The notes beneath the pieces are model-generated. The model was not told where the DNA came from. It searched no databases and was given only the letters and a program-made list of their open reading frames with translations. Of a DNA stretch of 64,000 nucleotides, positions 7,172 through 59,387 are shown piece by piece. Source of the DNA: an uncultured archaeon (GTDB lineage: Archaea; Aenigmatarchaeota; Aenigmatarchaeia; QMZP01); the NCBI GenBank assembly GCA_964498245.1, contig CAZCGK010000009.1, forward strand, positions 1,607 through 65,606, read 5' to 3'. The translations under genes and the position numbers were made by a program. Position 1 is the first letter of the stretch; every line of letters begins with the position of its first letter.

Positions 7172-7188
7172 AATTCAATTTTTCGAAT

Positions 7189-21564: not shown

Positions 21565-24063
21565 ATGAATATTAGAAAGGTACTGGCAGGAGGTCTTGCT
21601 GCACTTACTGCCGGTGCAACTGTGGCATTCGGCGCATTTGCGCAGAGCACATCTCTTAAGGACTACGTTGTAGCCACACCTGAAGGTGTGCTTACATCCC
21701 CGATAATAGTGGTACCCAGCTACGAAGGAATAACACCTCCGGCAGGTCTTGCAAAGGATATTGTCGGAGCAGCAGACATCGCAGCAGCTGTTGCTGGCTA
21801 TGCAACACAGGAGGTTTCAGTCGGTACAGGAACAACAGTTTCCGTGAGCAACGGTGTTGACATTTCTACAGCAAACACAAAGATTTACTTGGGAGACAGC
21901 CTGACAAAGTCAGGTCTGAAAACAACCCTGACAAAGAATGATCTCCCAACACTTCTGGCATCCGGAACTGTAACAGATGACAGCGGAAACACATATCCAT
22001 ATGACCAGTACATAACACTGTCTGCAGGTACTGTAACAGCAGGAAAGAGCAATGGTGACCTTTCCGACCCTGCAATATACATAGATACAGGTTACAGCAC
22101 AACAACACCTCTTTACAAGATATCAATAGTATTTAACAAACTCCTGAACGCTTCAAGTACAGATGTGCAGGGTAACAGCATAGAGATTCTGGGACAGGCT
22201 TACTCAATAGGAGCAGGAAGCAGTGATACAAAGCTTGTTCTCTACTCCAGTGCAAACAAGCAGACAATAAGCCAGGGAGAAACCGTAACAGTCAACATTG
22301 ATGGTGTTGACCATGAAATCGGTCTGATAGGTACATCAAGCACAACCACAGCTGTTATAACAGTGGACGGTGAATCAAGGTCCGTAACAAAAGGAAACTC
22401 CTACACAATAGCAGGATTGAATGTATACATAGAGGATGTATTCTACTTCGGAGGAGGAGCAACAGCACCTCCGGGACAGGTCGTTCTCAGCGTCAGCACA
22501 GGTGCATCCAAGATAACACTTGAAAACGGCCAGCCTGTAAAGGTTGGAACACAGGATGATATTGTAGACGGAACTCTGGTATCGATAACATCAACATCAG
22601 GACAGGGTATTTCCAAGATAGAGATATCCGTAACAGCAAAGGACCAGAACGCTGATTACATACTTGAGGGAGAAGCATTTACAGACCCAGTTTTCGGAAG
22701 CTTCAAGATCGCCTTCGGCGGCATGAACATGGGAACAACTGACACAATAACAGTAGACAACTCAGGAACAACTGCAGCCTCTCTAAAGGTAACAGACTAC
22801 AGAGGAAATGAGAAGACAATCACCTGGGCTTACACATCTTCAAGCAACTTCAACCCAGCACTTAACGAAACAAGCACAAGGCAGTTCCATGTAGTCGAAG
22901 GTGAGGCGGTAAAGAAGGGTGATTATGTACTTCTTGCACCTTCACAGGGATCCGAATTCGGTCATATAATGCAGTACACATCCTCAGGCAGCCTCGGACA
23001 GAGCGGTGCATACATAGACCTGAAGGATGTATTTACCGGAACAACAACAAGAGTCTACCTCACGGAAGGTAACAACTGGGGAGGAACATTCTACATAGAC
23101 GGTCAGCAGTACTATGTGAACTCAAGTGGTAGCGGTTCCTCGGATATGGTATTCACATGGGGAACAACTGCAAGTAGAGGTAGTGCAGGAAATGAGACAA
23201 CCGTGTTCCCACTGATAAAGCTCAACGGTGGTGAGTGGTTCACATTGACAACAAAGGTAAGTCTTAGCGATGGTACATGGTATGAGCTGCCAACAGGAAC
23301 ATTCTATTACAATGCAACAACAGATGCAAACTCTATTAAGCCACTAGGAAGGGTTACATACAACATAACAAGCGGACAACTCGCACTGGCAAACCCATCT
23401 GACAACACACAGCTCCAGTATCCAGCAGTTCTCGTACTTGAAGAGAAAGCAAAGGATGCAAACAACAATGATGTGCAGGATGCAATAATTGTAACCATAG
23501 CTGACGGCAGTGGAAGTGGTGTGGATCTCACAATTCAGGCACCTCTGCTAACAGCTACAGGTGCAAGTACAGGATACACAAAGGAAAGTGACAACAGCGT
23601 GACTGTATACGCGGACAGAAGAGGAACAATGGTTGAACATGATACAGACAGCCAGGGACTTGTGACAATCACATATCCGGATGAGCAGGCAACTGCAAAT
23701 GTTGCTGTAGGTCCGGATCCACAGTTCTCTGTTGCAGGCGAGGCAGGAACAGTTGAGCAGGCAATCAAGATAACCACACCGGTTGCCAAGCTCGACAATG
23801 AAATAAACACAGCATCTCTGACAGGAGACCTCATCCTCATCGGAGGACCATGTGCTAACAAGCTGGTAGCACAGCTCGCTGAGGATGAGACCACAGGTAT
23901 TCCAGCATGCGATGCATGGGATCTCTCAAAGGGTCTCATCAAGGAAGTAACAAACGCATTTGGTTCAGGAAAGAAAGCTCTCGTCGTTGCCGGTACAACC
24001 GCTGACGACACAAGAGAGCTTGCAGCCAAGGTAATGCAGGGAGTACTGTCTTTTGAAGAATAA
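21565..24063 (+). CDS. secreted Thr/Ser-rich surface (S-layer-like) protein
   Basis: Signal peptide 'MNIRKVLAGGLAALTAGATVAFGAFAQ'. The 832-aa body has T/S/G-rich, low-charge composition, many N-x-T/S sequons, and an oligo-T terminator downstream. Confidence 0.6.
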   Translation: MNIRKVLAGGLAALTAGATVAFGAFAQSTSLKDYVVATPEGVLTSPIIVVPSYEGITPPAGLAKDIVGAADIAAAVAGYATQEVSVGTGTTVSVSNGVDISTANTKIYLGDSLTKSGLKTTLTKNDLPTLLASGTVTDDSGNTYPYDQYITLSAGTVTAGKSNGDLSDPAIYIDTGYSTTTPLYKISIVFNKLLNASSTDVQGNSIEILGQAYSIGAGSSDTKLVLYSSANKQTISQGETVTVNIDGVDHEIGLIGTSSTTTAVITVDGESRSVTKGNSYTIAGLNVYIEDVFYFGGGATAPPGQVVLSVSTGASKITLENGQPVKVGTQDDIVDGTLVSITSTSGQGISKIEISVTAKDQNADYILEGEAFTDPVFGSFKIAFGGMNMGTTDTITVDNSGTTAASLKVTDYRGNEKTITWAYTSSSNFNPALNETSTRQFHVVEGEAVKKGDYVLLAPSQGSEFGHIMQYTSSGSLGQSGAYIDLKDVFTGTTTRVYLTEGNNWGGTFYIDGQQYYVNSSGSGSSDMVFTWGTTASRGSAGNETTVFPLIKLNGGEWFTLTTKVSLSDGTWYELPTGTFYYNATTDANSIKPLGRVTYNITSGQLALANPSDNTQLQYPAVLVLEEKAKDANNNDVQDAIIVTIADGSGSGVDLTIQAPLLTATGASTGYTKESDNSVTVYADRRGTMVEHDTDSQGLVTITYPDEQATANVAVGPDPQFSVAGEAGTVEQAIKITTPVAKLDNEINTASLTGDLILIGGPCANKLVAQLAEDETTGIPACDAWDLSKGLIKEVTNAFGSGKKALVVAGTTADDTRELAAKVMQGVLSFEE

Positions 24064-27439: not shown

Positions 27440-30283
27440 TCATCCCTTCCAGAACCTCTTTGTTTTTGCATAATTCCTTTCAGCTCTAAGTATTGCCCTG
27501 AAAAGATCATCCCCTTCAGGCATTTTAGCAAGTATTCTTCCAGCGGTTTTAACACCAACACCCCGTCCTGCTAAGGCTATAACAGCATTTTTTCCTGAGG
27601 ACATAACCATTGCAGCAGTATCATGCATAATGTTATAATACTTTAACTCTTCCTGAGAAAGCGGAACACCCGCGTTTTTCTTTCTTACCAGCTCCTGTGC
27701 TTCAAATACATATCTTGAAGGCACAGCGCTTATCAATCCTGCAGAACATTTAGGACACCTGATTTCTTCCGGAACATCCTTCACTTTCTTTATGGTTGCA
27801 TATTCTCCGCACTGCATACAAACAAGACCCATACTGGTTTCCAAAAGTCTCTTTTTAAAGACCTCAAATATCTCCCTTTCCGGTCTCTCAGGAGCTACTA
27901 TCTCATATTTTTTCTGTATACCCATTGTTCCCATGGGCGATATTCCCTGCTTTACAGCAATCTTTATCTTATCTCTGCCTATTTCTTCTACAATCTTTTT
28001 CGCCATGGCTGTGTCCAGTTTTTCCCGCAAAACCTCATTCATAGCTTCCCTGAAAGCAGGTGTGCCTTCATAGACTTCAATTATTTTTCTTATATAACCC
28101 TTTCCAAAATCCGCATCTTTTGAGATTATACCGAATCTTTTTGCGACATGAATAAACCTCCATGCAAAGATTTCTGTTTTGGGAACAGTCTCATTTAGAA
28201 CTTCATCTATATCTTCAGGCTTTATGTTTTTCATCGCCTCAACCACATATTTCCAGTCACCAATATGCTGAAGCTTCAGCATTATCCTGTACGGATCTGT
28301 CTGCAAACCCACCGAACCTAATTTAGTCATAAGCACAGAGGCCAAAACCCTTCCTATGGTATCGTTAACAAGCGAACCCCAGCATGCATGAATAACCACC
28401 CAAGAATTTTCCTCATCACTGTAATATTCAATAAGCACATGTTTATGGTCGGGCACGTATCCCCAGGTGTTTTGCTTTTTTACGTAAGAGTATATTTTTT
28501 CCGCTACATCCTTCGATACAGGATAAAGTGACATTAACTGATTTATAATTTTATGCTTTTTCTGGGTTCTGAGCTTTTCTTTTATAAATCTCCGGATTCT
28601 TCCAACCTCCTGAGCAACTTCAAATGGAACCGGTATAAGTTCACCCTCCCATGCGGGTATTGCTCCGGCAATACCCGAAAGAGGCTCAACTATTACTTTA
28701 TTGCTTCTAACATCAAGTATCCTCCATGGTTGTCCTTTCACTATAAAAGCAGAACCGGGCTGACCATGAAGCGCGACAAACTCTGCATCGAGTGTTCCCA
28801 CAGGCTTATCCGAAACCACATCAAACACTGTATAGGTTTTCGTGTCCGGAATAACGGAAAGGTTTTCATAGTAGTGAATAAAACTTCTTTCCCTCCTTTT
28901 CAGCACAGGCTTTTTTTCGAATTTCGAATCAATCCAGATAAGTCTTAATTTTTCCAGCATCTTTGCTGTCTCCATAAAAGTCTTAAAACCCAAGTTTCTG
29001 TACGGATATGCACGTTTGATGATTTTATACGCATTCTCCACCGGAATTTTATACTCATCGAGGCTGAGCCCCAATATCTGATTCGCCAGCACATCTAGTG
29101 CGGTTCCATAGGTTTTTGTTGGTTCCATCCATCCTTTAAGAGCAAGAGAGGCGATTGCCGCAGCCTCTAAACAATCATCAGCATCTGTAGAAACTATCAC
29201 ACCTTCTGAGGTTTTTTCCAGGGAGTGTCCTGACCTCCCTATTCTCTGCAAAAGCTTGGATACCTGCCTAGGAGACATGTACTGAATAACAAGATCTATG
29301 GAACCTATATCTATTCCGAGTTCCAAGCTGGATGTGCATATAAGCGATTTTATCCTTCCATCTCGAAAATCCCTTTCAGCAGAGACCCTTACATCCCGCG
29401 AGAGAGATGAATGATGGGTCTCAACAGGAAGATTTTTATCGAAAATCTTTAATCTGGATGAAAGAATCTCGGAAAACTCACGGGTATTTGTAAATGTCAG
29501 GACGGATTTTCTTTCCCTGATCAGATCTCTTATTCTTCTTATCCTTGCTGCAATCTCGGGTGTTGCTGCTATTTTATCCGCTATGAGAACATCGATTTTT
29601 TCAGGTGCCGGAGACTCGACTTTTATGCTGATTCTTTTTCTCTTTTCCACATTTATGATTTTATATTTCCTTTTGTTCAGTGAAAAAAACTTCACAATCT
29701 CTTCAGGTGTGCCCACGGTCGCAGACATACAGAGTATCTGCGGTTCTTTTTTCAAAATCTCCTTGAGCCTTTCCAAACCAACACAGAGCTGAAGACCCCT
29801 TTTATTCGTAACAAGCTCGTGAACCTCATCTATAACTATGTAACGAATATTTTTCAGATTTTTGCGCATAAGCTTTCCTGTAAGCATTGCCTGAAGGGAT
29901 TCCGGTGTTGATATTATCATATCAGGTGGTTGTTTCACCTGTCTTGATCTTTCCGCTGGAGTGGTATCTCCGTGCCTAACACTTACAGAAAAACCAATCT
30001 TTTCTGACCACCATTTTATTCTTTTCAGTAAATCCCTGTTGAGACTTCTCAGAGGGGTTATATAAAGTATGGATATGGGCCTTGGCTTATCCCTCAACCA
30101 CACATCAAAAATGGGAAGCATTGCGGCTTCTGTCTTGCCTGAGCCTGTTTCTGATATTGTAAGCACATTCTTTCCTGCAAGAATCTCGGGAATAACACCT
30201 TCCTGAATAGGTGTGGGTTTTTCAAACCGCTTTACCACTATTTTTCTGAGTTCCGGTTCCAGTATATGAAATGCATTTACCAT
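27440..30283 (-). CDS. lhr: Lhr-family large ATP-dependent helicase
   Basis: Walker A 'TGSGKTEAA', DEVH box 'VIDEVHE' and a Zn-finger-like 'CMQCGE...CPKC' are present, with the Lhr-core architecture. 947 aa. Confidence 0.85.
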   Translation of the reverse strand: MVNAFHILEPELRKIVVKRFEKPTPIQEGVIPEILAGKNVLTISETGSGKTEAAMLPIFDVWLRDKPRPISILYITPLRSLNRDLLKRIKWWSEKIGFSVSVRHGDTTPAERSRQVKQPPDMIISTPESLQAMLTGKLMRKNLKNIRYIVIDEVHELVTNKRGLQLCVGLERLKEILKKEPQILCMSATVGTPEEIVKFFSLNKRKYKIINVEKRKRISIKVESPAPEKIDVLIADKIAATPEIAARIRRIRDLIRERKSVLTFTNTREFSEILSSRLKIFDKNLPVETHHSSLSRDVRVSAERDFRDGRIKSLICTSSLELGIDIGSIDLVIQYMSPRQVSKLLQRIGRSGHSLEKTSEGVIVSTDADDCLEAAAIASLALKGWMEPTKTYGTALDVLANQILGLSLDEYKIPVENAYKIIKRAYPYRNLGFKTFMETAKMLEKLRLIWIDSKFEKKPVLKRRERSFIHYYENLSVIPDTKTYTVFDVVSDKPVGTLDAEFVALHGQPGSAFIVKGQPWRILDVRSNKVIVEPLSGIAGAIPAWEGELIPVPFEVAQEVGRIRRFIKEKLRTQKKHKIINQLMSLYPVSKDVAEKIYSYVKKQNTWGYVPDHKHVLIEYYSDEENSWVVIHACWGSLVNDTIGRVLASVLMTKLGSVGLQTDPYRIMLKLQHIGDWKYVVEAMKNIKPEDIDEVLNETVPKTEIFAWRFIHVAKRFGIISKDADFGKGYIRKIIEVYEGTPAFREAMNEVLREKLDTAMAKKIVEEIGRDKIKIAVKQGISPMGTMGIQKKYEIVAPERPEREIFEVFKKRLLETSMGLVCMQCGEYATIKKVKDVPEEIRCPKCSAGLISAVPSRYVFEAQELVRKKNAGVPLSQEELKYYNIMHDTAAMVMSSGKNAVIALAGRGVGVKTAGRILAKMPEGDDLFRAILRAERNYAKTKRFWKG

Positions 30284-30345
30284 TCTCCCCCCTTGAAGGA
30301 GTTCGAAAGAGTGAATATATAGGAGTTTATCTATTAAAATTAAAT

Positions 30346-32787
30346 ATGCATAAAAAACTGACTCTCGGTTTTCTAATCATAATTACACTTCTCGTTAGCT
30401 TTTCTTCTGCAGAGGCTTATATTGCTCTTGATATAAACGATGAAAAGATCAATCATTCCATACACACATATCTTGACATGAATATAAGCATTATCCACGA
30501 TGTACATCTTTCAGAAGATATTGTGCTCAAAATCTACATAGATGATGAAAAGGCAGCAGTAATAGATTTAGAAGAATACCTTCAGAACCAGCAGAATTAC
30601 ACGCTTAAAACCCACATTTTCAATTACAATGTTGTGGCAGAGGGATGGAATAACTGGACTGATTATCCTTCCCAGACCTTTACATATACTGTTTCTGCAA
30701 GGGGATGGTGTGGAAGTGACTTGGGAGCATCCGATGAATGCAAAACAGCGTGTTCCTGCGATGGTGACTGCCCCGCATATCCCTGTGAATGGCATATAGA
30801 ATATCCGCAGCTTCAGGCAGAGGTTTCTGGATATGATGGATTGAAGTTCATAAAAGATGGTTTGAGCCTTATAGCACCACCTCAAGACGGCTGGATAGAA
30901 GAATGGAGTGTAAGTGTGATAGATAACACAAACGTTGAGGCAACGATGAGAGCGGCCTGCGGCGGAGAGGAATACCCTCCGGGTATAACCCGGGATAAGA
31001 CCGGATGGAACGTTGTTGGAAGAAAAATCAACACATTCTGTACAAAACAGGGAGCAGGTGCTGTTTGCAACATAGGACCGTTTAATGAAGAAAGCCTGCA
31101 GGAAGGATACAGAAAATACGGCGGCCCTTCAGTACAGGGTATTACCGGCGGTGGAGTGTACATGATCGATGATAACGGAAACATGATTTATCAGAGACCT
31201 GGTGTGGAAATATCCTCCTGGAATGGAAGCGAGGGAAAAATAGTGTTCAATGTTTACGATGCAGACAGAACCTATGTTATATTCTATTTACCGCCTGATG
31301 GTTCAGAATTCAATGAAAGCCACAGAATGTGTGCATATACAGACTATTCGGTCAAAAACTCATCCGAATGGAAGGTTTATCAAGAAGTAAGTGGAAACCA
31401 GGTCTCATATGATAAAGAATATATCAGAACACTCACAGATGACTATATAAATAACCTTCCATATCCCGATTGTCCTATACCAGATCAGAGCGAATGCAAC
31501 AGAACTATAGACATGCTCTATGTTGTTAAAACATACGACCCGGATAATGCTGTGAGTTTGAATTTTGATCCCAAAACAAAAACCGTTACAGCAAGGGTGA
31601 CAAAAATTATTTTTGCGCAGAATTATACGGAAAATGTGAGCCTTTACAGGTATAGAATATCCCTAAGCTCATTAGATTTGAACAGTTCCCATGTACTTAA
31701 AGCAGAACTGTGGAACGGATCGGTAAAGCTTTTGGAATCCTCTTCTGAGTTCTGGGTCTGTGAAGATCAGGATGAGGACGGCTACTGCGAGACATCAGGC
31801 ATATGCAGCGATAATGATCCGAGTCAGTATCCCGGAGCAAAGGAAATATGCGATGGAAAGGATAATGATTGCGATGGTGAAGTTGATGAGGATTTCAGGG
31901 ATCCTGCTAAAGTTCTTTCTGGAGAATTACCCGCATTGCTGGGCGAGGAGTGTTATAATTGGGAGGGCAGTGCCTGTGCAGGTACATGGGTATGCTCTCA
32001 AGATGGTTTGAACCTTACTTGTAATGCACCCCGTCTTCCCGGAGAACAGCCAGAAATATGTGCAAACAATATAGATGATGACTGCGATGGAGAAATAGAT
32101 GAAACCTTTGAAAGTGATGGAAAAACACCAGCGTGTGTGATAAACGAATCGTGCACACCTGGAGAAACCAAACCCTGCGGAAGCAATATAGGAAGATGTA
32201 AAGAGGGTTACAGAATATGCATAAATAATGAATGGAGCGAGTGCAGAGATTATGTCGGCCCTGTAGAAGAGGTATGCAATCGCATTGACGATGATTGTAA
32301 CGGTATTGTGGATGATGTTAATGGTGGCGAGTCCGTAGAGGAAACACATTGCAGATGCTATAATAATGGAATTCCTTCAGCAGAAATATGCAATGATATA
32401 GATGATGATTGTGATGGGAAAATAGATGATGGTATATCTTGCTGTACCGAAGGAGAAACAAGGACTTGTGGTATAAACATCGGTGTGTGCAAATCCGGAA
32501 TTCAACGATGCATTAATGGTTCATGGGGAAAGTGTGAAGGAGCAGTGTTACCTTCGGAAGAAATATGTTATGATAACCTTGATAATGATTGTGACGGTAG
32601 TGTTGATGAAAACTGCAATCCGGATATAACCTGCAGAAATGGAATCCAAGACCTCAATGAAAACGGTATCGATTGCGGTCCCTACTGTCCCAACAAATGC
32701 TTCAATTTTTTTGGTTTGGTACTGATAGCACTCGGTACCCTGATTTTAATAATATTATTCATAATGATACAGATTAAGAAGATTTAA
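30346..32787 (+). CDS. secreted Cys-rich repeat protein with at least 5 'DNDCDG-x-DE' (MopE-like putative metal-binding) repeats and a C-terminal transmembrane anchor
   Basis: Signal/transmembrane segment 'LTLGFLIIITLLVSFSSAEA'. Repeats include CDGKDNDCDGEVDEDF, CANNIDDDCDGEIDETF, CNRIDDDCNGIVDDV, CNDIDDDCDGKIDDG and CYDNLDNDCDGSVDENC. The C-terminus is hydrophobic, 'FFGLVLIALGTLILIILFIMIQIKKI'. Confidence 0.65.
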   Translation: MHKKLTLGFLIIITLLVSFSSAEAYIALDINDEKINHSIHTYLDMNISIIHDVHLSEDIVLKIYIDDEKAAVIDLEEYLQNQQNYTLKTHIFNYNVVAEGWNNWTDYPSQTFTYTVSARGWCGSDLGASDECKTACSCDGDCPAYPCEWHIEYPQLQAEVSGYDGLKFIKDGLSLIAPPQDGWIEEWSVSVIDNTNVEATMRAACGGEEYPPGITRDKTGWNVVGRKINTFCTKQGAGAVCNIGPFNEESLQEGYRKYGGPSVQGITGGGVYMIDDNGNMIYQRPGVEISSWNGSEGKIVFNVYDADRTYVIFYLPPDGSEFNESHRMCAYTDYSVKNSSEWKVYQEVSGNQVSYDKEYIRTLTDDYINNLPYPDCPIPDQSECNRTIDMLYVVKTYDPDNAVSLNFDPKTKTVTARVTKIIFAQNYTENVSLYRYRISLSSLDLNSSHVLKAELWNGSVKLLESSSEFWVCEDQDEDGYCETSGICSDNDPSQYPGAKEICDGKDNDCDGEVDEDFRDPAKVLSGELPALLGEECYNWEGSACAGTWVCSQDGLNLTCNAPRLPGEQPEICANNIDDDCDGEIDETFESDGKTPACVINESCTPGETKPCGSNIGRCKEGYRICINNEWSECRDYVGPVEEVCNRIDDDCNGIVDDVNGGESVEETHCRCYNNGIPSAEICNDIDDDCDGKIDDGISCCTEGETRTCGINIGVCKSGIQRCINGSWGKCEGAVLPSEEICYDNLDNDCDGSVDENCNPDITCRNGIQDLNENGIDCGPYCPNKCFNFFGLVLIALGTLILIILFIMIQIKKI

Positions 32788-32792: not shown

Positions 32793-34457
32793 TCATTTAT
32801 GAGCAAAGAAAATTGTAACAATGTTTTTGTCCACAGCATCAACCCTTCCGAAACCTATTCTTTCCATCTGTATAATATCCCCGGGTTTTAAACTTTCCAT
32901 AGAATATTCCCCTATACCCTCTTCTTCTCCTTCAGGTTTCACAATAATCACATTCACGTACCTCTCAGGAACCCATTGAATCTTTTGCAACACTCTGTCT
33001 TCTTCCGGTATACTTTCCATTTCCTCAAATCTCTTATTGAGAACTCCTGTAGCAAGTTCTTTCAATCTTATTTTTTTACCTTTGAACTTTTCGAAATCCT
33101 CTTTTGAGACGTAGATATAGTTTCCAACTTCAACCTCTCTGGTTTCCTCCTTTTCAGGATGGGTTTTTAGTCTTACTTTACTTCCACTTACCTTAGAAGA
33201 ACTGATATCTATCTTCACAGGGTTTATAACAACCATGTATCTCTTTGCAATAGGATCTATCACCTTTCTGTTATAGGATTCAAAAGTTTCCCAGTTCAAA
33301 ATAATATCGGTTTTCGTCAAACTGCAGTGTTCCGCATACATTCTAAAAGCCTCTGGTTGAAAACCCCTTCTGAGCAGAGCCCGAACGGTGTGAAGTCTTG
33401 GATCATCCCAGCCTGAAACCTCTCCGTTCTCTATCATCCTTTTTATATCCCTTGTGTGAAGCTTCTCTCCAGGAAGATATATCATACCAAAATTCACTAC
33501 TATTGGTGGTTCCCAACCAAAAGCCTGATATATTCTTCTCTGTATTTCTGTATTGTGTTCATGCTCTTTTCCCCGAAATACATGTGTTATTCCACAAACG
33601 TGATCTTCTATTACATTAGCATAATTATAGAGAGGCCATACTCTGTATTTTTTCCCTTTCAGAGGATGTTCGGCTTCATTAATCCTCATTATGGGCGGAT
33701 CTCTGAAAGCGGGATTGGGATCATGCATGGAAGTTTTAAACCTGAGAACTATTTCACCTTCTCTGTATTTCCCCTTCAGCATTTCCTGCCACAGCTTCAT
33801 ATTTTCTTCTTTACCCTTTTCCCTGCATGGGCAATTCCTCTTTTCAAGCTTGAATTTTCTAAAATTCTCAGCAGAACATGTACATGCATAGGCTTTATTT
33901 GTATTTATAAGCTCTTCTGCGTATTTGTAATACAATTCCATATCATCAGATTCTATAACAAGTTTATCCCATTTTACACCACAAACCTTCAGGTCCTCCA
34001 TTATCATATCATAAAATCTCTTTTCTATTCTTCTTGCATCCGTATCTTCAAACCTTAAAATAAACTTTCCGTTATATTTTTTCGCATAAAGATAACTCAG
34101 CATGGCTGCCCTGAGCAAATGACTTATATTTAACGGGCCTGTTGGTGCAGGGGCAAACCTCGTCACAACTCTTCCAGGATGTGCTCCAGGAAGCTCAGGA
34201 AGAGTTTCCTGCCTTTTTTCCTCTCTTTTGAGAAGTTCGGGTGCAATTTTCTGAAGCATTTCTTTTTGTTTTTCCCGAGACAGAGAGTTCACTTCCTTCA
34301 CAACCTTCTCAATTTCCGCTTTTACCTCATGCACCCTTTTCCTTAGTTCAGGTTCGCTGGCCATGACTTTTCCTAAGACAGCCTTGGGGCTTGCCTTACC
34401 TCCATAAAAAACCGCATTCTGTAAAACATATTTAAGCACAACATTCTTCAGATTCAT
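32793..34457 (-). CDS. gltX: glutamyl-tRNA synthetase, archaeal type
   Basis: 'RFAPAPTGPLNISHLLRAA' is the archaeal HIGH region. 554 aa. Confidence 0.9.
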   Translation of the reverse strand: MNLKNVVLKYVLQNAVFYGGKASPKAVLGKVMASEPELRKRVHEVKAEIEKVVKEVNSLSREKQKEMLQKIAPELLKREEKRQETLPELPGAHPGRVVTRFAPAPTGPLNISHLLRAAMLSYLYAKKYNGKFILRFEDTDARRIEKRFYDMIMEDLKVCGVKWDKLVIESDDMELYYKYAEELINTNKAYACTCSAENFRKFKLEKRNCPCREKGKEENMKLWQEMLKGKYREGEIVLRFKTSMHDPNPAFRDPPIMRINEAEHPLKGKKYRVWPLYNYANVIEDHVCGITHVFRGKEHEHNTEIQRRIYQAFGWEPPIVVNFGMIYLPGEKLHTRDIKRMIENGEVSGWDDPRLHTVRALLRRGFQPEAFRMYAEHCSLTKTDIILNWETFESYNRKVIDPIAKRYMVVINPVKIDISSSKVSGSKVRLKTHPEKEETREVEVGNYIYVSKEDFEKFKGKKIRLKELATGVLNKRFEEMESIPEEDRVLQKIQWVPERYVNVIIVKPEGEEEGIGEYSMESLKPGDIIQMERIGFGRVDAVDKNIVTIFFAHK

Positions 34458-35042: not shown

Positions 35043-36317
35043 TCACAAATCAAGCAACCATCTCCAGAGAGGCACAAATTTTATTTTTCTTCCTTCTGAA
35101 GTTTCCTCTCCCTCATAATCCCAAGTTATAACAAGCAAATTCCTGCATTTCAGTTCCCTTCCTGCTTTGAGCAAAGCCCTGATCTCCCTTCTTTCAATCT
35201 CATCTCTACTTTCCATGCAGGTTACCTGTATAAGCTGTTTTATGTTCACTCCATTCTTAATCACAAAATCCACTTCATGTTGCCGGTAATCCTTCCAATA
35301 GTAAATCTCTTCGCTTCCGTATCTGTAACTCCTTCTTCTCATAAGCTCTACTGCCACAAGATTTTCCATAAGCCTTCCAAAATCTTCTGAAATTCTGAAG
35401 GAAATCGTATTGGCAAGCCCTGTGTCTATACAATAGAACTTCTTTGGAGATATCATCTGTTCCTTCAGCTTTGGTGAATATCTCTTCAGAACAAAACCAA
35501 GATATGCATTTTCCAGAAAACCCAGCCAGTTTCTGAGTGTATGAACATCCCTTACCTCAAGGATATTTTTTGTTTTTCTTATGCTGAATTCCTTTGCCGA
35601 GTTTGTTACAAGATATTTAATGAATTCTTTCAGGGCATCTTTTTTCTTTATTCTGATTCTTTTCAAAATATCCTTTTCTATCATATCCCCGTATATCCTC
35701 AGCAGGATTTCTCTTCCAAATCTGTTGACTTCAGGAAACCCTCCTGCTCTGATGTAATCTTTCAGCATTTTTTTAATCTCAGCTATTTTCAGGGAATAGA
35801 GTTCACCGATATCGAATTCATTGTATTTGAGAAATTCCGAAAAACTGAAAGGAAAAAGTGTAAACTGAATATGTCTTCCAGTCAGGGCAGTGGCGAGCTC
35901 TCCTGATAGCAGTTGGGAATTGCTACCAGTGATTATTAGCCTTTTGGTTCTTCTTAGCCTGTTGGCAAACAGTTCCCATCCTTTCACTCTCTGGGGTTCA
36001 TCAAGGATTATGTTTTCAACCTTTCCGTAAAGCTCGTAGAAAGCTTCAAGTATTTTGTTTAAATCTTTTGCTTCAATCTCCACAAATCTTTCATCATCGA
36101 AATTGATGTAGGCGAAGTTTTTCTGAAAAATCTGAACTGAGAGTACGGATTTTCCGCATCTCCTGACACCGAGAATTGCGAGAATGTTGGGAAAACCCAG
36201 AAATTTTCTTAATTCTTCTCTATTTACTTCCCTTTCTATGATCTTTTCTTTTTCGAATTTTTCTCCAATCTCCTCTCTCTGGGCAGTTATTATATCCTTG
36301 ATTTCATGGAGTTTCAT
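35043..36317 (-). CDS. AAA+ ATPase with C-terminal DUF4143 domain (paralog of 19975..21297)
   Basis: Walker A 'LGVRRCGKSV' and Walker B 'NIILDEPQ' are present. The C-terminal region aligns with the paralog ('...YWKDY..EVDFVIK.G...LIQV...'). Confidence 0.75.
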   Translation of the reverse strand: MKLHEIKDIITAQREEIGEKFEKEKIIEREVNREELRKFLGFPNILAILGVRRCGKSVLSVQIFQKNFAYINFDDERFVEIEAKDLNKILEAFYELYGKVENIILDEPQRVKGWELFANRLRRTKRLIITGSNSQLLSGELATALTGRHIQFTLFPFSFSEFLKYNEFDIGELYSLKIAEIKKMLKDYIRAGGFPEVNRFGREILLRIYGDMIEKDILKRIRIKKKDALKEFIKYLVTNSAKEFSIRKTKNILEVRDVHTLRNWLGFLENAYLGFVLKRYSPKLKEQMISPKKFYCIDTGLANTISFRISEDFGRLMENLVAVELMRRRSYRYGSEEIYYWKDYRQHEVDFVIKNGVNIKQLIQVTCMESRDEIERREIRALLKAGRELKCRNLLVITWDYEGEETSEGRKIKFVPLWRWLLDL

Positions 36318-50289: not shown

Positions 50290-50564
50290 GCAAAGAATTT
50301 AAAGAAAGCCCCCGGTGGGACTTGAACTAAAGTTCGGATCTCCTCTTTCAGCCTTTAAAAAATTATTCATAAATTATCACTTTCTTATCTTCTAATTCAA
50401 TATTAACTATATCCCCCTTTTTGATTTTGAGTTGTTTAATGATTTCTTCAGGAATACAAACATATAAGGAGTTTCCAGATTTCATCACTTTTCTTTTAAA
50501 AATTACACCCATATTAAATCTATACTGTGTATATGTTTATAAAACTTTCGGTCTATTTTATAAT

Positions 50565-51383
50565 ATGAATTACAACCAAAAAGTAAAGAAAGAATTCATA
50601 AAATATTTATACAGGAGAAATTTGTCAGAGGGGAGAATAAGGAAATATATGCTGGTTTTTGATGAGATTGAAAAGCTTAAAATAAACCTAAAAAGACTCA
50701 CCAAGAACGATATAGACAAATACTTTTTCTATTTGATGAAAAGTAAATATAAGGAATGGACGATAGTAACTAAATGGAAATGCTTTAAAAGAATTTGCAA
50801 ATTTGTCAAGAACATAGATCTAAGCGAATGGTATATAAAAACTCCAAACATAGAACCGGAGATACTTTCTCTTGATGAAATAAAAGCTATTATTGAAAAT
50901 CTTAGGAATTTCAGAGATAGATTAATCGTGATGTTGTTATATGAGAGTGGTATGCGCATAAGTGAATTGCTGAATTTAAAGAAAGGGGATGTTATATTCG
51001 ATTTCTACGGAGCATTGTTAAGAGTTCATGGAAAAACAGGTGTTAGATATATAAGAGTTGTAAAAATTGCTGAATTGCTTAGAATTTATATTAATTTATC
51101 TGCATCAGAAAGATTGTTTGAAATTACTGAACGTGCAGTTTTAAAAAATATAAAAAAGGCATGTGAAAAGGCTGGAATTAAAAAGCGTGTATATCCACAC
51201 TTATTCCGTCATACGAGAGCAACACATCTTGCGAAATATCTTACTGAGTCGGAACTAAAGGCTTATTTTGGTTGGTCGAAATATTCGAATATGCCTGCTA
51301 TATATGTACACTTATCAAGTAGGGACGTTGATGAAAAGATCATTAAAACAAGTCAGATTCATGATCTACAGTTAAAAATATAA
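50565..51383 (+). CDS. int: tyrosine recombinase/integrase
   Basis: Box I 'ESGMRISELLNLKKGDV' and box II 'HLFRHTRATHL...YVHLSSRDV' (catalytic Tyr) are present. Start trimmed to the ATG at 50565, downstream of an AT-rich promoter ('tttataaaac'). Confidence 0.8.
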   Translation: MNYNQKVKKEFIKYLYRRNLSEGRIRKYMLVFDEIEKLKINLKRLTKNDIDKYFFYLMKSKYKEWTIVTKWKCFKRICKFVKNIDLSEWYIKTPNIEPEILSLDEIKAIIENLRNFRDRLIVMLLYESGMRISELLNLKKGDVIFDFYGALLRVHGKTGVRYIRVVKIAELLRIYINLSASERLFEITERAVLKNIKKACEKAGIKKRVYPHLFRHTRATHLAKYLTESELKAYFGWSKYSNMPAIYVHLSSRDVDEKIIKTSQIHDLQLKI

Positions 51384-51433
51384 AAATATAAAAGTAATAA
51401 AATAATACTTAAGGTGGCCTGAGTGGTGGGAAT

Positions 51434-51574
51434 TTGACTAAAAAATCAATACACGTTTCTCGTGAGACTTGGAAATCACTCATGAAAATCAAGTTGGAAA
51501 CGAATGCAAGTTCTTTAGATGATGTTATTCGTTTTCTAATCGAGAAGGGTGGTAAGAAATGGTTAAAGAAATGA
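51434..51574 (+). CDS. ribbon-helix-helix (CopG/Arc-like) DNA-binding protein with a TTG start
   Basis: (M)TKKSIHVSRETWKSLMKIKLETNASSLDDVIRFLIEKGGKKWLKK shows a beta-strand and two-helix RHH pattern. 46 aa, so absent from the ORF track. Confidence 0.4.
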   Translation: MTKKSIHVSRETWKSLMKIKLETNASSLDDVIRFLIEKGGKKWLKK

Positions 51575-51726
51575 ATTTAACTGATAAAATTTCGCTTGTT
51601 GTAATATATGTTATGATTGTGCTCGCATTTTTATTCGGTGAACCGTATGGTGTGAGACAGTCTTATGTGATTACAATAGCTATAATCGTGACTATGAGTA
51701 TTATTTGGTATCTCACCAAAAAATAG
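51559..51726 (+). CDS. small membrane protein (55 aa), overlapping the RHH gene
   Basis: MVKEMNLTDKISLVVIYVMIVLAFLFGEPYGVRQSYVITIAIIVTMSIIWYLTKK has two hydrophobic helices. Confidence 0.3.
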   Translation: MVKEMNLTDKISLVVIYVMIVLAFLFGEPYGVRQSYVITIAIIVTMSIIWYLTKK

Positions 51727-52126
51727 TGATCAGGTAGGCTCCGAGAAGCAGAATGTATCCGGGAGTTTCCTCTCTTTCTTTTTTGATCAATTTTTTTGTT
51801 ATAAAAGATAGTATGAAAAGTCCTGTGAAAGCTATTAGAAACTTTATTATTTTGAAATGTTCTATCGCTCCGAAGCCGAGCAGGATCCAGACAAGAGCTT
51901 GTAAATCACCGGTGGCCATGAATTTTTTTGTTAAGAGTATTACAATAATAGTGAGAAAAATCAGTATGAAAACTAAAATTATATTTATTTTAAAGTACCC
52001 TAAAAGCATCATTGTTGCTCCAAACATGAAATAGTTGTATCGTTCATCTATTTCTCTCGTTCTGATGTCTCTGAAAGTGTTGTAAATGAGCATGAGTATA
52101 GAGAGAAAGTAATATATTGTGATCAT
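51713..52126 (-). CDS. element membrane protein
   Basis: 137 aa with four transmembrane helices. Confidence 0.4.
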   Translation of the reverse strand: MITIYYFLSILMLIYNTFRDIRTREIDERYNYFMFGATMMLLGYFKINIILVFILIFLTIIVILLTKKFMATGDLQALVWILLGFGAIEHFKIIKFLIAFTGLFILSFITKKLIKKEREETPGYILLLGAYLITIFW

Positions 52127-52569: not shown

Positions 52570-52572
52570 ACT

Positions 52573-53394: not shown

Positions 53395-53395
53395 G

Positions 53396-56531: not shown

Positions 56532-59387
56532 TTATGTTATTTTCGAATATTCTTCTTTATAGACGAGTAATACGAATATGAGCATAATGATGATTATTGT
56601 TTGTATAAACACGATTTGTGTCGTCGCTGGTGCAAGTGTTGTTATTGCTAAAGCGATTATTAAAGTGATTATACCGAAAAAACCAAAGATGTGTCTTACA
56701 GCTACGAATGTTAAACCGAAAAATATTAGAGTTGCTGATATAAATATTGCGAGCCATGTGTCTATAAGTCCGATCGCTCCGGACAATGTGAATATTCTCA
56801 CTATTTCTGATTGAGATGTCTGCGTGTATTTCTTTACTACAAGCTTTAGTATGTTGTTCTGAATACTTATGCTTGAGTAATCGAAGTAAATCGTAAATTC
56901 GTTTGGTGTTTCTGTTTCAGTATGAGAAAATAGAACTGTGTCCCCGTCATAGATATAGATTTCTGTTTTTGTATTCTCATTTTCTAAGTTTTTATAGTAA
57001 ATTTTCAGTGTTGTATTAGATATTTTGCTTACGCTTATATCGTCAGTTGTAAGTGTGAAGGTGTAAGTCTTTTTTGTTGATTCTAAAACGTCGAGATTAA
57101 CTGATGTTGCTACTGATCCGTCAAGCGTTGCTAAAAATACTTTCTGATCGTTTTCGTAAGTGTAGAGATAATAGAGAGCTTTGATTGTATATGCCTTTGC
57201 CATGAGTGCATCTTGATATGCGTATTTTGTATAATCTGCGAGGACATAGCACTGAGCGAGATTGTTTTTAACTGCTATCGGTTTGTTTGTGCTGGAGTAA
57301 AAAACTATTTCATAGAATTGTTGTGTCTTTGCTACACACGCTCTTGTTGTTGTATCTATTAATTCGAGATTTAAATCAATATATAGTAAGCTGTTAGGAT
57401 CAGTATTATAACGTTTTTCTATGCGAATTACATCACTTTGATTTGAAATAAAGAGTATAGATGTGTCATTGTTTTCTAAGAAGTTGAAAATCTCTTGTGT
57501 TTTCTCACTAATTGCTCTGAGTGTGTTCATATCTGAGAATGAATTGAAAACACTACCGTCATCTTCGTTGATCAGAGTTATATTTTTCTTGTAGATGTAT
57601 ATCTTGTTGCTGCTTGAATCTTGATTGTTTACAATATCGTGACATGTTACACTAAACGAGTTCGTTCCGTCACTGAGTGTGAAGCTATAAACCGTATAAT
57701 TATTTGCGAATAAATATGAATATTTATTTGTATTTATTGTTATATTACATTCTTGCACTGGACTCACTGAATCGCTTACAGAGATATTTATGTATTCAGT
57801 TGCGTTATTGCGAAAACCGTAATTGAAATTATAAGAAATAATTATTTGTGGTGGATTGATATCGCTTATATATGTAAAGTTTTTGCTTTCTATAATGTCG
57901 GGATCTTTAAACAAAAATACAATGGCTGTTAATTCTGTGTCTATGTTATTTGTGTAAATGGTGCTGAATTGATAAGTTATATTGTTGCATTGTATTATTG
58001 TTTCGTTGTAATATTGTGTATTTGCATAATCATCTATTCTTACAATAACACTGATTGAGTTATTTAATAATCCACACCGTGCTGAATAATTTATGTTTAT
58101 TGTATGTGCATAATTTATATTGTTATAAGTTGTGTAATTTGAGAATGTAACAATAAGTGTATATAAATCTGTTGTAAAGAAAACTGTTTCAGATGATGTT
58201 TTACTTTCGCTATCTGTTGCATATATTGTTAAATTGTTGAGTGTTTCACTCTCTACTGTTATGTTCATTTCTATTGTTGTGTCATTGTAATAACTGTTAT
58301 TTTCGTATATTTTTTGCCCATTGAGATATATTGTAACATTTAAGGTTGTTGAATTATCATCTGAAACTATGAAGTTTAGAAAAATATTGCTTGTATAGTA
58401 AGTTGTATTTGACGGTGAGTAAATTATTATCGATGGTGGATTGGTTTCTGCTGTTTCCTCCGCTCCAAAACTGTATGTCGGTTCTGGGTCGTGGTATTTT
58501 CTTATAAAAAACCAATCTGTATATGATATACAATCATATGATGGTCTATATCGAATCATATCTCCTATGTTTTCTCCAGACACTGTTTGCTCGAAAACAA
58601 AATCTCCATTATCGAGGTCTGCGATGAGATATGTCGTGTTCGGAGTTATTGCTGTATATTCGTGAAACTCCGTTGTATCGAATACATATGTTGATGAATA
58701 ATAATAATTATTTGTTCCTCCGTATCTGTCGCTAATTCTTATATAATCGTTTATTCCATCAAACATTATTTGATCATGATTATCTATATCTTCGTATCTT
58801 ACATCAACTTGTGTTTGTGCATTTGTTGATGTGTTAACTTTCCAATGCACCGCAATTGAGTCAGTTGTTGTATATGATACTGAAAGGACTCCCCAAGATG
58901 TTGTATCCGTTCTTTGTAAATACCCATCTGCCTCTGTATATGTGCCTGACTCTACAGTCCATTTGCTTGTATTGAAATCTTCATCATCGAAATCATCTGC
59001 AAACAAAAAAGTTGAATCTATATCACTTTCATTCGCCGCTCCCGAATTCCCGTAATACATGCAGATTGTGCTGTTTATCGTGGGAACTTTAACCCAAACT
59101 TCAGCATACTGCCCGTCAACTTTGTTTTCAATCCAGTAGGGAATTTCGTAAGCATCGTCTGAACAGTTGTTCGTGAATCTCAAATCGTCGAAATCAGATT
59201 GCATTCCAGACTCGTATGTAACATTAAGCAAAACCTGATAATCTGTCAAGCTTGAGCCATCAGGAACGGTTATTTCTATCTGCTTCCTGTACTGCCAATC
59301 GGTATTCCACCAAACAGCGTATGCAGAGTTTATAGTAAGAAGTAAGAAAATCATCAAACTTAACGTTATTATCGTTTTTCGTATCAT
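56532..59387 (-). CDS. large secreted and membrane-anchored protein with an N-terminal DUF2341-like (concanavalin/LamG-like) domain; putative virion adhesin
   Basis: Signal peptide 'MIRKTIITLSLMIFLLLTINSAYA', then 'VWWNTDWQYRKQIEIT...DLRF...YWIE...VWVKVP...YYGN', the DUF2341 hallmark. The body is N/T/S/Y-rich and ends in a C-terminal cluster of three or four transmembrane helices. 951 aa. Confidence 0.6.
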   Translation of the reverse strand: MIRKTIITLSLMIFLLLTINSAYAVWWNTDWQYRKQIEITVPDGSSLTDYQVLLNVTYESGMQSDFDDLRFTNNCSDDAYEIPYWIENKVDGQYAEVWVKVPTINSTICMYYGNSGAANESDIDSTFLFADDFDDEDFNTSKWTVESGTYTEADGYLQRTDTTSWGVLSVSYTTTDSIAVHWKVNTSTNAQTQVDVRYEDIDNHDQIMFDGINDYIRISDRYGGTNNYYYSSTYVFDTTEFHEYTAITPNTTYLIADLDNGDFVFEQTVSGENIGDMIRYRPSYDCISYTDWFFIRKYHDPEPTYSFGAEETAETNPPSIIIYSPSNTTYYTSNIFLNFIVSDDNSTTLNVTIYLNGQKIYENNSYYNDTTIEMNITVESETLNNLTIYATDSESKTSSETVFFTTDLYTLIVTFSNYTTYNNINYAHTININYSARCGLLNNSISVIVRIDDYANTQYYNETIIQCNNITYQFSTIYTNNIDTELTAIVFLFKDPDIIESKNFTYISDINPPQIIISYNFNYGFRNNATEYINISVSDSVSPVQECNITINTNKYSYLFANNYTVYSFTLSDGTNSFSVTCHDIVNNQDSSSNKIYIYKKNITLINEDDGSVFNSFSDMNTLRAISEKTQEIFNFLENNDTSILFISNQSDVIRIEKRYNTDPNSLLYIDLNLELIDTTTRACVAKTQQFYEIVFYSSTNKPIAVKNNLAQCYVLADYTKYAYQDALMAKAYTIKALYYLYTYENDQKVFLATLDGSVATSVNLDVLESTKKTYTFTLTTDDISVSKISNTTLKIYYKNLENENTKTEIYIYDGDTVLFSHTETETPNEFTIYFDYSSISIQNNILKLVVKKYTQTSQSEIVRIFTLSGAIGLIDTWLAIFISATLIFFGLTFVAVRHIFGFFGIITLIIALAITTLAPATTQIVFIQTIIIIMLIFVLLVYKEEYSKIT

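Follow-up and report, generated by a model that had tools for sequence, protein, structure and literature searches.

The gene described here is complete at 30346..32787 (+) of a 64 kb stretch of archaeal DNA (the window) and comprises 813 codons and a stop, giving a protein of 813 residues. Its enclosing open reading frame (30271..32787, +) is longer, and the first ATG of this frame overlaps the start codon of an Lhr-type helicase gene on the opposite strand (27440..30283, −), as pointed out in an earlier note made from the sequence. The same note took Met 30346 as the true start, with which we agree, since a protein in the public collection (P0001) is identical to the 813-residue product (100% identity, 100% coverage), the orthologues all start at the equivalent methionine, a signal peptide follows immediately (MHKK, a 15-residue hydrophobic core and AEA/Y) and a TATA-box-like element, AATATATA, lies upstream. 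The distance of ∼28 nt from this element to the ATG is typical of archaeal promoters and would fit a leaderless archaeal mRNA. Scanning the window for Rfam families and tRNAs gave no matches.

The organism was placed using the neighbouring glutamyl-tRNA synthetase (GluRS), the best matches of which are Aenigmatarchaeota metagenome-assembled genomes (52–65% identity); the window also contains archaeal ribosomal proteins. The GluRS contig search additionally turned up a locus (L006) bearing an orthologue of the gene. Group 4 membrane-bound hydrogenase clusters, which have been reported for the Aenigmatarchaeota phylum (PMC8407114), are found in the orthologous loci. The gene occurs once in every locus examined, with no paralogue in the window, and its surroundings recur: an Lhr gene lies at most 5 kb away in nine of ten loci and the convergent arrangement with GluRS is repeated in L001, L002 and L006. 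None of the extra neighbour ORFs of the related loci was matched in the window. The features of the locus are collected in Table 1.

Table 1. Features of the gene, its product and its neighbours, with positions in the window
Feature	Positions	Strand	Basis or remark
MJ-type S-layer protein gene	21565..24063		PF05124, TIGR01564; signal peptide, without a membrane anchor of its own
Lhr-type helicase gene, divergent neighbour	27440..30283	−	49–73% identity to Pfam-annotated Lhr genes of related loci
TATA-box-like element AATATATA	30314..30321	+	∼28 nt 5' of ATG; candidate promoter, read from sequence
Signal peptide, aa 1–24 (MHKK, hydrophobic core, SSAEA/Y)	30346..30417	+	Hydropathy and sequence; layout common to nearly all full-length members
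Head, β-rich ectodomain, aa 25–471 (447 aa)	30418..31758	+	AlphaFold2 pLDDT 91, pTM 0.69
Stalk, aa 472–786 (315 aa), about ten small modules	31759..32703	+	Composition, loop count, Cys conservation
Complete MopE unit 1, aa 472–516 (C-E-D-Q-D-E-D-G-Y-C ... PGAKEICDGKDNDCDGEVDED)	31759..31893	+	Best PF11617 stretch, aa 487–515
Four-Cys module, aa 536–559 (CYNWEGSACAGTWVCSQDGLNLTC)	31951..32022	+	Four Cys invariant in family; no Pfam match
MopE core 2, aa 565–586 (PGEQPEICANNIDDDCDGEIDE)	32038..32103	+	PF11617, motif, loop scan
Six-Cys module A, aa 597–633 (C..C..G.T.PCGSNIGRC..G.R.C.N.EWS.C)	32134..32244	+	Invariant Cys, Gly, Trp
MopE core 3, aa 639–657	32260..32316	+	PF11617, motif, loop scan
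MopE core 4, aa 677–695	32374..32430	+	PF11617, motif, conservation; invariant C-x-C upstream at aa 669/671
Six-Cys module B, aa 699–730 (CC..G.TR.CG...G.C..G.Q.C..G.W..C)	32440..32535	+	Family conservation
MopE core 5, aa 736–755	32551..32610	+	PF11617, motif, loop scan
Juxtamembrane module, aa 757–785 (C....TC.NGIQDLNENGIDCG..C...C)	32614..32700	+	Conserved in 85–95% of family; no Pfam match
Single transmembrane helix, aa 788–810	32707..32775	+	Hydropathy up to 3.1; AlphaFold2 helix aa 788–812
Short basic cytoplasmic tail KKI	32776..32784	+	Sequence
Glutamyl-tRNA synthetase gene, convergent	32793..34457	−	5 nt from stop codon; orthologues in L001 and L002 carry tRNA-synt_1c families

Architecture of the protein and its family

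Hydropathy analysis reveals only two hydrophobic segments in the protein, at aa 4–28 (where AlphaFold2 places an N-terminal helix with low confidence) and at aa 784–813, the latter followed by KKI. A Sec signal peptide exports the protein, and one C-terminal helix with a short basic tail keeps it in the membrane. The protein has more N-x-S/T sequons than expected (15 versus 6.7, z = 3.7; up to z = 12 in relatives) and 12 of the 15 are located in the head. The gene product is thus best read as a surface glycoprotein with type I membrane topology from an Aenigmatarchaeote, a member of the DPANN archaea. The expectation of a large, secreted protein has been borne out in size and export (813 residues, Sec-type signal peptide), but the description of it as 'built from' repeats has not: the repeat-bearing stalk makes up the C-terminal 40% only, and the N-terminal 55% is a head (aa 25–471), a separate β-rich domain which defines the family.

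AlphaFold2 models the head with confidence (pLDDT 91), and it can be divided into an N-terminal β-sandwich (∼aa 25–122), a conserved core (aa 123–384) and a C-terminal β-sandwich (aa 385–471), with near-invariant cysteines at positions 205, 329, 376 and 384. It has no match in Pfam, NCBIfam or the sequences of the PDB, and when its subdomains and the modules of the stalk were scanned singly against Pfam at E ≤ 10, only PF11617 and noise came up. Foldseek searches of the PDB with the head and with the whole model returned nothing significant (best E values of 9e-4 and 2.7e-3, probability ≤ 0.13), and a search of BFVD with the head gave no match; the top matches of these searches were generic tandem Ig folds, none above a probability of 0.35. 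The head residues conserved at 75% or more are glycines, prolines, aromatic and aliphatic residues and cysteines, together with single Arg, Lys, Asp, Ser and Thr positions, and across 41 members neither His nor Glu forms a conserved column, nor is there anything resembling a catalytic set. Between strain variants that are 91% identical, substitutions affect 17% of positions in aa 25–122 and 15% in aa 385–471, but 4.6% in the core. The terminal subdomains therefore vary fastest between strains, a pattern more in keeping with an exposed surface than with contact to a lattice.

The family defined by this head is small, with only 60 representatives found among 1.84 billion proteins by the head profile, for which the present protein served as founding member. 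Full-length members share a layout of signal peptide, head of ∼450 residues, fixed MopE stalk and C-terminal transmembrane helix, and nearly all representatives are 770–870 residues in length. PF11617 is matched by all 41 aligned full-length members, and the sole other domain match is a weak one to Endomucin in a single member. A word-index search with a 23-sequence head profile yielded three proteins, and a contig scan with a head alignment of four orthologues confirmed no relative. When loci were searched with the full-length alignment, 79 of the 80 fetched shared the stalk only (bacterial MopE arrays) and the remaining one, L027, was a family member. A literature search found no paper linking MopE or PF11617 with Aenigmarchaeota or DPANN.

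The stalk is strongly acidic and rich in cysteine, with 36 of the 48 Cys of the protein (11.4% of stalk residues), 23% Asp+Glu, a net charge of −53 and a single His (0.3%). It is better conserved than the head (37–57% versus 24–47% identity); its small Cys modules follow a fixed order and number across the family, and the stalk cysteines and loop aspartates are conserved in 85–100% of 41 relatives. The earlier note had counted at least five DNDCDG repeats in the C-terminal half, and five copies of C-x-[DN]-x-[DN]-D-[DN]-C-[DN]-G-x-[VI]-D-[DE] are indeed present (aa 502–515, 572–586, 644–657, 682–695 and 741–755), with the Cys and Asp of the repeat cores kept in 90–100% of the family. A profile search with PF11617, proposed in that note as a check, gave a strong match (88.3 bits against a cut-off of 27, E = 3.5e-25) in five stretches of the whole protein, and 95.4 bits for the stalk alone. 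At the DNA level the copies are only 62–88% alike, indicating that the repeats are old and not the product of recent duplication.

Putative calcium-binding loops of the DxDxDG type ([DN]-x-[DN]-x-[DN]-G followed by a hydrophobic and an acidic residue) occur in the stalk, and its count of seven [DN]x[DN]x[DN]G copies compares with 0.35 ± 0.6 expected from 2000 shuffles of the stalk; full-length relatives have three to eight. Unit 1 has the same layout as in the bacterial MopE-type proteins P0005 and P0008. Six-Cys module A is EGF-like by cysteine spacing only and has no Pfam match above noise. The juxtamembrane module carries the seventh loop, DxNxNG, and is doubled in tandem in the relative P0039. 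From these cysteines and loops we infer that disulfides and Ca2+ loading would make the stalk a stiff, protease-resistant spacer of fixed length. The disulfides are assumed, and in an anaerobe the cysteines of the stalk could ligate metals instead.

The C-terminal anchor and the match to the MopE repeat profile

A C-terminal transmembrane helix is found in all full-length family members, followed by cytoplasmic tails of 0 to ∼75 residues that are often rich in Lys/Arg. The ending had been described as one transmembrane segment with a short basic tail and no PGF consensus, which is accurate, and as a possible sortase-type anchor, against which every test run came out. In an archaeosortase substrate the helix would serve as a sorting signal, with a lipid anchor taking its place after cleavage, and the hydrophobic helix with its short basic tail does lend the C-terminus here a tripartite look. 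However, no PGF, PEF, VPXXXP, CGP or other conserved motif is found at the start of the helix in the protein or in 41 relatives (the former has ...CPNKCFNFFGLVLIALG... at this point, and target and relatives read FNFFGLV, PNMLSWV, YNPISLM and others), and instead of a Ser/Thr-rich linker the last Cys module (aa 757–785) joins the helix directly. An NCBIfam scan of the whole protein returned no family at E ≤ 1; this library contains models of archaeosortase/exosortase target C-terminal domains, the PGF-CTERM model (TIGR04126) among them. Several relatives have long tails, or a conserved GKE[LF]TWEE..KRW.PA motif, past the helix that would be lost on processing, which argues against cleavage. 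Among the 57 ORFs of the window (64 kb of genome) that were scanned against Pfam, none matched an archaeosortase or exosortase family. We consider processing of this kind highly improbable and read the C-terminus as a plain transmembrane anchor.

The strong match to PF11617, a family named 'Cu-binding_MopE' by Pfam, raises the question of whether the protein acquires copper or another metal in the manner of MopE or CorA, with the Cys/Asp repeats capturing the metal at the surface. The 48 Cys and many Asp of the ectodomain could be cited in favour, as thiolates could ligate metals in an anaerobe. On the other hand, the conserved D-x-D-C-D-G-x-[VI]-D is a calcium-loop pattern and not a Cu(I) site, and no metal-homeostasis genes are adjacent. 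In MopE* and CorA, copper is bound by two His and a kynurenine within a β-sandwich domain (PMC3423442, PMC3912023), a domain without a detectable counterpart here, and PF11617 takes in no more than a small, non-specific stretch of MopE (PMC6189053). The His–His–kynurenine(Trp) site is absent: there is one His in the 315-residue stalk and no conserved His column in the family. The MopE* and CorA structures have been deposited (PMC3423442, PMC3912023) and were thus covered when phmmer and profile searches of the PDB with the whole protein, the head profile and the stalk found no similar solved chain at E ≤ 10. The match to PF11617 does not imply MopE-type copper binding and, with the site absent and the profile confined to a non-specific region, the protein is not a MopE homologue in the functional sense. 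The metal-binding connotation carried over with the MopE name in the earlier note hence does not transfer as far as copper is concerned, and a role in metal acquisition appears very unlikely.

Possible functions

The architecture leads us to favour, at about even chances, an N-glycosylated type I surface receptor or adhesin carried on a Ca2+/disulfide-stiffened stalk, being neither an enzyme nor a metal scavenger. The Sec signal peptide would direct export and the C-terminal helix and basic tail would retain the protein in the membrane, next to which the disulfide-locked, Ca2+-loaded stalk might act as a stiff spacer, by rough estimate a few tens of nanometres long and so perhaps sufficient to span the pseudoperiplasm and the S-layer. 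The N-glycosylated β-rich head would then bind an outside partner, most likely the envelope of a host or neighbouring cell, or else a surface polymer. Binding to an external partner is suggested by the lack of conserved catalytic-type residues in the head and by its fast-varying terminal subdomains. A further step, that the head is an undescribed fold serving as a host- or partner-recognition module and that the family constitutes a dedicated cell-attachment receptor of the Aenigmatarchaeota, is offered tentatively, as a possibility that is more likely wrong than right.

The main rival to a receptor or adhesin is an S-layer tether or pillar similar to SlaB, in which the stalk would set the distance from membrane to S-layer and the head would dock into the lattice. 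The window does encode an MJ-type S-layer protein that lacks a membrane anchor of its own, and the invariant number of modules, with the stalk as the best-conserved part, is what would be expected of a spacer of defined length. The presence of a single gene per locus in conserved chromosomal synteny also resembles a core envelope component. Adhesins are usually variable in repeat number and copy number, and a classical adhesin accounts for the fixed-length, highly conserved stalk and the single copy per locus no better than a structural envelope component would. Against a tether, the S-layer gene is not linked (6.3 kb apart with four unrelated genes between), the 10 kb upstream of the L002 family gene show no S-layer family when annotated with Pfam, and the S-layer query was unmatched in all fetched loci, in a search able to find close relatives only. 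In addition, we know of no need for such a protein in MJ-type S-layer archaea outside this lineage, the head family is very rare (60 representatives, as noted above) and the outermost subdomains vary fastest between strains. We therefore regard a tether as unlikely, though deserving of serious consideration.

Two other roles for the head appear far less probable. Enzymatic activity of the stalk-displayed head, for instance as a glycosidase or protease that processes host or environmental polymers, might be read into a weak match to GH123_N at aa 287–348 (E = 0.008–0.045), but at 12–14 bits this falls below the cut-off of 22 and concerns a non-catalytic β-sandwich domain; with no His/Glu column or catalytic-looking set in 41 members and no enzyme fold from Foldseek, we give this reading little credence. 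Relatives of the lineage form intercellular connections, and a type I membrane protein with a β-rich, disulfide-rich ectodomain could conceivably be a cell–cell fusogen, fusexin or class II-like, that builds the cytoplasmic bridges seen between DPANN cells and their hosts. The PDB includes HAP2, archaeal Fsx1 and viral class II fusion proteins, yet the Foldseek searches of it with the head and the whole model found nothing significant, nor did that of BFVD, and the protein is devoid of a fusion-loop-like hydrophobic segment beyond the signal peptide and the transmembrane helix, which makes a fusogen the most remote of the readings. Four readings (copper protein, substrate of an archaeosortase, fusogen and enzyme) have accordingly been set aside, as the searches for site, motif, fold and catalytic set were all against them.

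For DPANN archaea, which are believed to live attached to other cells, contact proteins have to our knowledge been identified in very few cases and in no Aenigmatarchaeote. The present gene provides a concrete candidate: conserved, syntenic, single in each locus examined and with a clearly surface-exposed product, the head of which has been confidently modelled yet remains unmatched and has strain-variable terminal subdomains. An attachment receptor, if that is what it is, would offer a direct molecular handle on cell contact by uncultured DPANN archaea and a prokaryotic counterpart to the Cys-rich type I receptors of eukaryotes; a tether would represent a new way of anchoring an anchorless MJ-type S-layer. 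Either reading is a lead as to function. For the widespread 'MopE' repeat, a generic stalk module stabilized by Ca2+ and disulfides is a better reading than a copper site, a point that affects automatic annotation since hundreds of metagenomic proteins bear the PF11617 name.

Comparison with known systems

MopE and CorA (from the methanotrophs Methylococcus capsulatus and Methylomicrobium album) are, like the protein described here, surface-associated or secreted and carry the PF11617 motif; they also have a structural Ca2+ site (PMC3912023). Substrates of archaeosortase A with PGF-CTERM, such as the S-layer glycoprotein of Haloferax volcanii, are likewise surface glycoproteins of archaea with a hydrophobic helix and basic residues at the C-terminus, but their PGF motif, Thr-rich linker and NCBIfam match are all absent here. 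SlaB of the Sulfolobales combines a C-terminal transmembrane anchor, extracellular β-sandwich domains and a stalk of defined length beneath an S-layer whose main protein is anchorless. The SlaB stalk forms a coiled coil and its gene shares a transcript with slaA, whereas the present stalk consists of Cys/Asp modules and the gene is unlinked to the S-layer gene; as nothing in the PDB matched, no similarity of sequence or fold to SlaB was found.

In its mode of working the protein would be comparable to eukaryotic type I receptors (LDL-receptor class A, cbEGF and thrombospondin type 3), which combine a signal peptide, a ligand-binding head, a Cys-rich rod, a single transmembrane helix and a short tail, and the rods of which are built of small Cys-rich modules, each with an acidic Ca2+ cage. 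The LDL-A cage D-C-x-D-G-S-D-E resembles the core D-C-D-G-x-x-D-E, although this is a lead only. Pfam scans of the stalk and modules at E ≤ 10 gave no match to Ldl_recept_a (PF00057), EGF_CA (PF07645) or TSP_3 (PF02412), placing the protein outside those families and making the resemblance architectural.

Likeness in sequence is seen to the PF11617 repeat proteins ('MopE-related' Cys-rich secreted or surface proteins), mostly of Myxococcota and other bacteria, for which the literature searched describes no member with a demonstrated function. They share the unit D-x-D-x-D-G ... PGA-x-E-x-C-D-G-x-D-N-D-C-D-G-x-x-D-E, of which unit 1 is a complete copy, and the whole 300-residue stalk aligns with them at 30–36% identity. 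They are also exported, some with C-terminal anchors, and their genes lie mostly on contigs of high GC (median 0.60 across the 80 fetched loci, of which one is the family member). These bacterial proteins vary in repeat number and have other N-terminal domains, whereas the array described here is short and fixed in composition, interleaved with conserved four- and six-Cys modules, always fused to one head and found in an archaeal lineage.

Gene start, export and domain organization

The + strand reading frame listed for the window (30271..32787) begins with an ATG that overlaps the start of the Lhr gene on the other strand by 13 nt; that the frame runs into the Lhr start had been recognized in the earlier note. 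Initiation at the internal methionine at 30346, which the same note favoured, yields an 813-residue product. We adopt this start because an identical 813-residue protein is present in the public collection (P0001), three full-length orthologues (48–54% identity) begin at the same point, residues 1–24 are a canonical Sec signal, in which MHKK is followed by a hydrophobic core of 15 residues and SSAEA/Y, in keeping with the secretion proposed from the sequence, and a AATATATA element lies ∼28 nt upstream of the ATG, at what we infer to be the spacing of an archaeal TATA box before a leaderless transcript. The Lhr and target genes are divergent, with 62 bp between them. The product contains 48 cysteines. 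Its hydrophobic segments number just two (residues 4–28 and 784–813), and it is very likely an exported, single-pass protein with a C-terminal membrane anchor.

Features of the target protein and of the window (aa, residue of the target; other positions are window nucleotides)
Feature	Position	Strand	Remarks
Target gene	30346..32787	+	MopE-repeat surface protein
AATATATA element	30314-30321		
Signal peptide	aa 1-24		
Head	aa 25-471		almost all β
Head N-terminal sandwich	about aa 25-122		
Head core	aa 123-384		
Head C-terminal sandwich	aa 385-471		
Stalk	aa 472-786		
MopE-type motifs	aa 502-515, 572-586, 644-657, 682-695, 741-755		
Juxtamembrane module			C-x-N-G-x-x-D-x-N-E-x-G-x-D-C-G-x-x-C-x-x-x-C
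Single TM helix	aa 788-810		then tail KKI
Tandem PF00579 synthetase genes	3132-5375	+	class I (W/Y-type)
AAA_14/DUF4143 ATPase genes	19975-21297; 35043-36317	+; -	same domain pair, flanking the region
MJ-type S-layer protein gene	21565..24063	+	PF05124, TIGR01564; 6.3 kb upstream of target
Lhr-type helicase gene	27440..30283	-	947 aa
Glutamyl-tRNA synthetase (GluRS) gene	32793..34457	-	adjoins target gene
Tyrosine integrase	50421..51383	+	PF00589, phrog_1
DUF2341 protein	56532..59387	-	951 aa

The full-length AlphaFold2 model, based on an alignment of 41 family sequences, has a mean pLDDT of 85, with values above 90 over most of residues 40–470, 70–85 in the cysteine-rich region and a single helix at residues 788–812; the head modelled alone (residues 25–471) reached a pLDDT of 91 and a pTM of 0.69. 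Four head cysteines (205, 329, 376 and 384) are nearly invariant in the family; the target has 15 N-x-S/T sequons, 12 of them in the head. The stalk is 11.4% Cys and 23% Asp+Glu, with one histidine and a net charge of -53. It runs from a complete MopE unit through a four-cysteine module, the second MopE core, a six-cysteine module with EGF-like spacing and the third core to a C-x-C, the fourth core, a second six-cysteine module, the fifth core and the juxtamembrane module.

The five cysteine-rich repeats anticipated in the earlier note are in place, and the profile search suggested there matched PF11617 (Cu-binding_MopE) in Pfam over five stretches (score 88.3 bits, cut-off 27, E 3.5e-25). Their DNA sequences are 62–88% identical to one another, so that the copies are ancient rather than recent duplicates. 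Seven [DN]-x-[DN]-x-[DN]-G loops are found in the stalk, against 0.35 expected from shuffles of the same acidic segment: one in each MopE core, one in the first stalk segment (D474-x-D476-x-D478-G479) and one in the last module. The pattern D-x-D-C-D-G-x-[VI]-D agrees with the classical DxDxDG/EF-hand calcium loop at positions 1, 3, 5, 6, 8 and 9 and has a cysteine at position 4.

The family and its genomic setting

A head-only profile run against 1.84 billion representative proteins retrieved 60 proteins, 55 of them at E <= 1e-10. Nearly all full-length members have 770–870 residues and consist of an N-terminal signal, head, stalk and C-terminal TM helix; three giant members (1431–2097 residues) carry long N-terminal extensions ahead of the head. 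PF11617 matched all 41 aligned members, in which no other domain family was found save one weak Endomucin match in one member. The number and order of the stalk modules are invariant, and each stalk cysteine and loop aspartate is kept in 85–100% of members. Across eight loci the stalk (37–57% identity) is better conserved than the head (24–47%), the neighbouring Lhr gene showing 49–73%. Between strain-level variants 91% identical overall, substitutions cluster at the two ends of the head, where the sandwiches differ at 17 and 15% of positions; the head core differs at 4.6% and the stalk at 7.9%. The target has more sequons than expected (15 against 6.7, z 3.7), with several relatives showing a strong excess (z as high as 12). 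After the TM helix, four members (P0037, P0048, P0052 and P0053) carry a conserved cytoplasmic motif, GKE[LF]TWEE[LV].KRW.PA, suggesting that those lineages may have an intracellular partner for it; the target has KKI only.

The genes around the target are housekeeping genes, and the window encodes ribosomal proteins S4e and archaeal L24, RNA polymerase subunit D, RNase P p30 and Cdc6. The best matches of the adjoining GluRS are from Aenigmatarchaeota MAGs (52–65% identity), more remote ones being from Archaeoglobaceae and Woesearchaeota. In orthologous loci the family gene is adjoined by clusters for group 4 membrane-bound hydrogenase, a trait reported for non-thermal Aenigmarchaeota (PMC8407114). 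It is single in every locus examined, always on chromosomal contigs, with an Lhr gene within 5 kb in nine of ten loci and a CysRS, GluRS or MBL-fold gene on the opposite side, a setting kept even where head identity is only 24–31%. Single copy and conserved setting together point to vertical inheritance in one lineage rather than a mobile adhesin cassette; the association with Lhr may be due either to lineage synteny or to regulation shared by the two genes.

The slot between GluRS and Lhr is not always filled in this way. In Aenigmatarchaeota MAG B30_G1 (L004, 2092-4182, - strand) a 696-residue polytopic membrane protein without a Pfam family replaces the MopE-repeat gene. Proteins likened to it by eye, unaligned, from their similar, basic N- and C-termini (L023, 10768-12903; L024, 6879-8996) lie two to three genes from the family gene; neither has a match in the window. 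In the most divergent locus (L026, GCA_900175155.1) two large cysteine-rich proteins (3024-7927, + strand), one with 18 and the other with 40 Cys, each having a signal or TM segment and no Pfam match, stand between Lhr and the family gene, with which they may form a small island of surface-protein genes.

Elsewhere in the window, the stretch from the integrase to the end (50421-64000) consists almost only of - strand ORFans and has a GC content of mostly 0.31–0.33 (0.38 at 60–62 kb), compared with 0.37–0.43 over most of the remainder; a virus or mobile element has probably integrated here. The tandem synthetase genes are presumably TyrRS and TrpRS.

Proposed role at the cell surface

The layout is well supported: a conserved acidic, cysteine-rich region next to the membrane, a distal β-rich domain and an enrichment in glycosylation sequons. 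The stalk modules would be locked by disulfides, each holding one Ca2+ in its DxDxDG cage, and could together form a stiff rod of fixed length that bears the head through the pseudoperiplasm and the S-layer. Variation in the head is fastest in its outer subdomains; the head would bind an external partner, making the protein an adhesin or receptor, a role to which we give at best an even chance. Its main rival, a tether for the S-layer, we consider improbable. The window encodes an S-layer protein with a signal peptide and neither a C-terminal membrane anchor nor PGF-CTERM, and one may ask how the S-layer is then tethered; this proximity, the invariant stalk length and the core-gene behaviour of the family would suit a tether, but the family is rare and its gene is unlinked to the S-layer gene. 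The S-layer gene stretch itself is locally GC-rich (0.46) with a strong A-over-T skew (AT skew 0.25). We regard the target as a candidate for a protein of cell contact or of the envelope in an uncultured DPANN lineage.

Comparison with known systems

The sortase-type C-terminal anchor considered possible in the earlier note did not hold up. The C-terminal helix starts with no PGF or other conserved motif and is preceded by no Ser/Thr linker, no NCBIfam model matched the target at E <= 1, and relatives continue past the helix into long cytoplasmic tails or the conserved tail motif, so that an archaeosortase substrate is rejected on every point open to testing. No archaeosortase, metal-homeostasis gene or secretion system was found among 57 window ORFs scanned against Pfam. 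A recognizable fusogen, enzyme or lectin fold was likewise rejected: Foldseek searches of both models against the PDB and of the head against BFVD returned only tandem-Ig or capsid noise, none of it significant (best E 9e-4 to 2.7e-3, probability <=0.35, TM-score <=0.15), and no set of residues conserved in the head looks catalytic.

The MopE-type repeat is already known, and metagenomes, mostly bacterial, contain many such arrays (at least 363 matches; median contig GC 0.60 over the 80 loci kept). The combination found in Aenigmatarchaeota, where one uncharacterized head, a stalk of fixed composition and a plain TM anchor are conserved together in syntenic loci, is undescribed; no account of it was found in Pfam, NCBIfam, the PDB or the searchable literature. 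PF11617 covers just a small, non-specific piece of MopE (PMC6189053), and the name 'Cu-binding_MopE' should not be taken literally. Copper in MopE/CorA is bound by two histidines and a kynurenine in a β-domain (PMC3423442, PMC3912023), whereas the target stalk has a single histidine, and no solved chain matched the whole protein, head profile or stalk even at E <= 10; a copper protein of this type is therefore rejected. LDL-A, cbEGF and TSP3 modules were set aside for want of any profile match, but the architecture of the target works like these modules.
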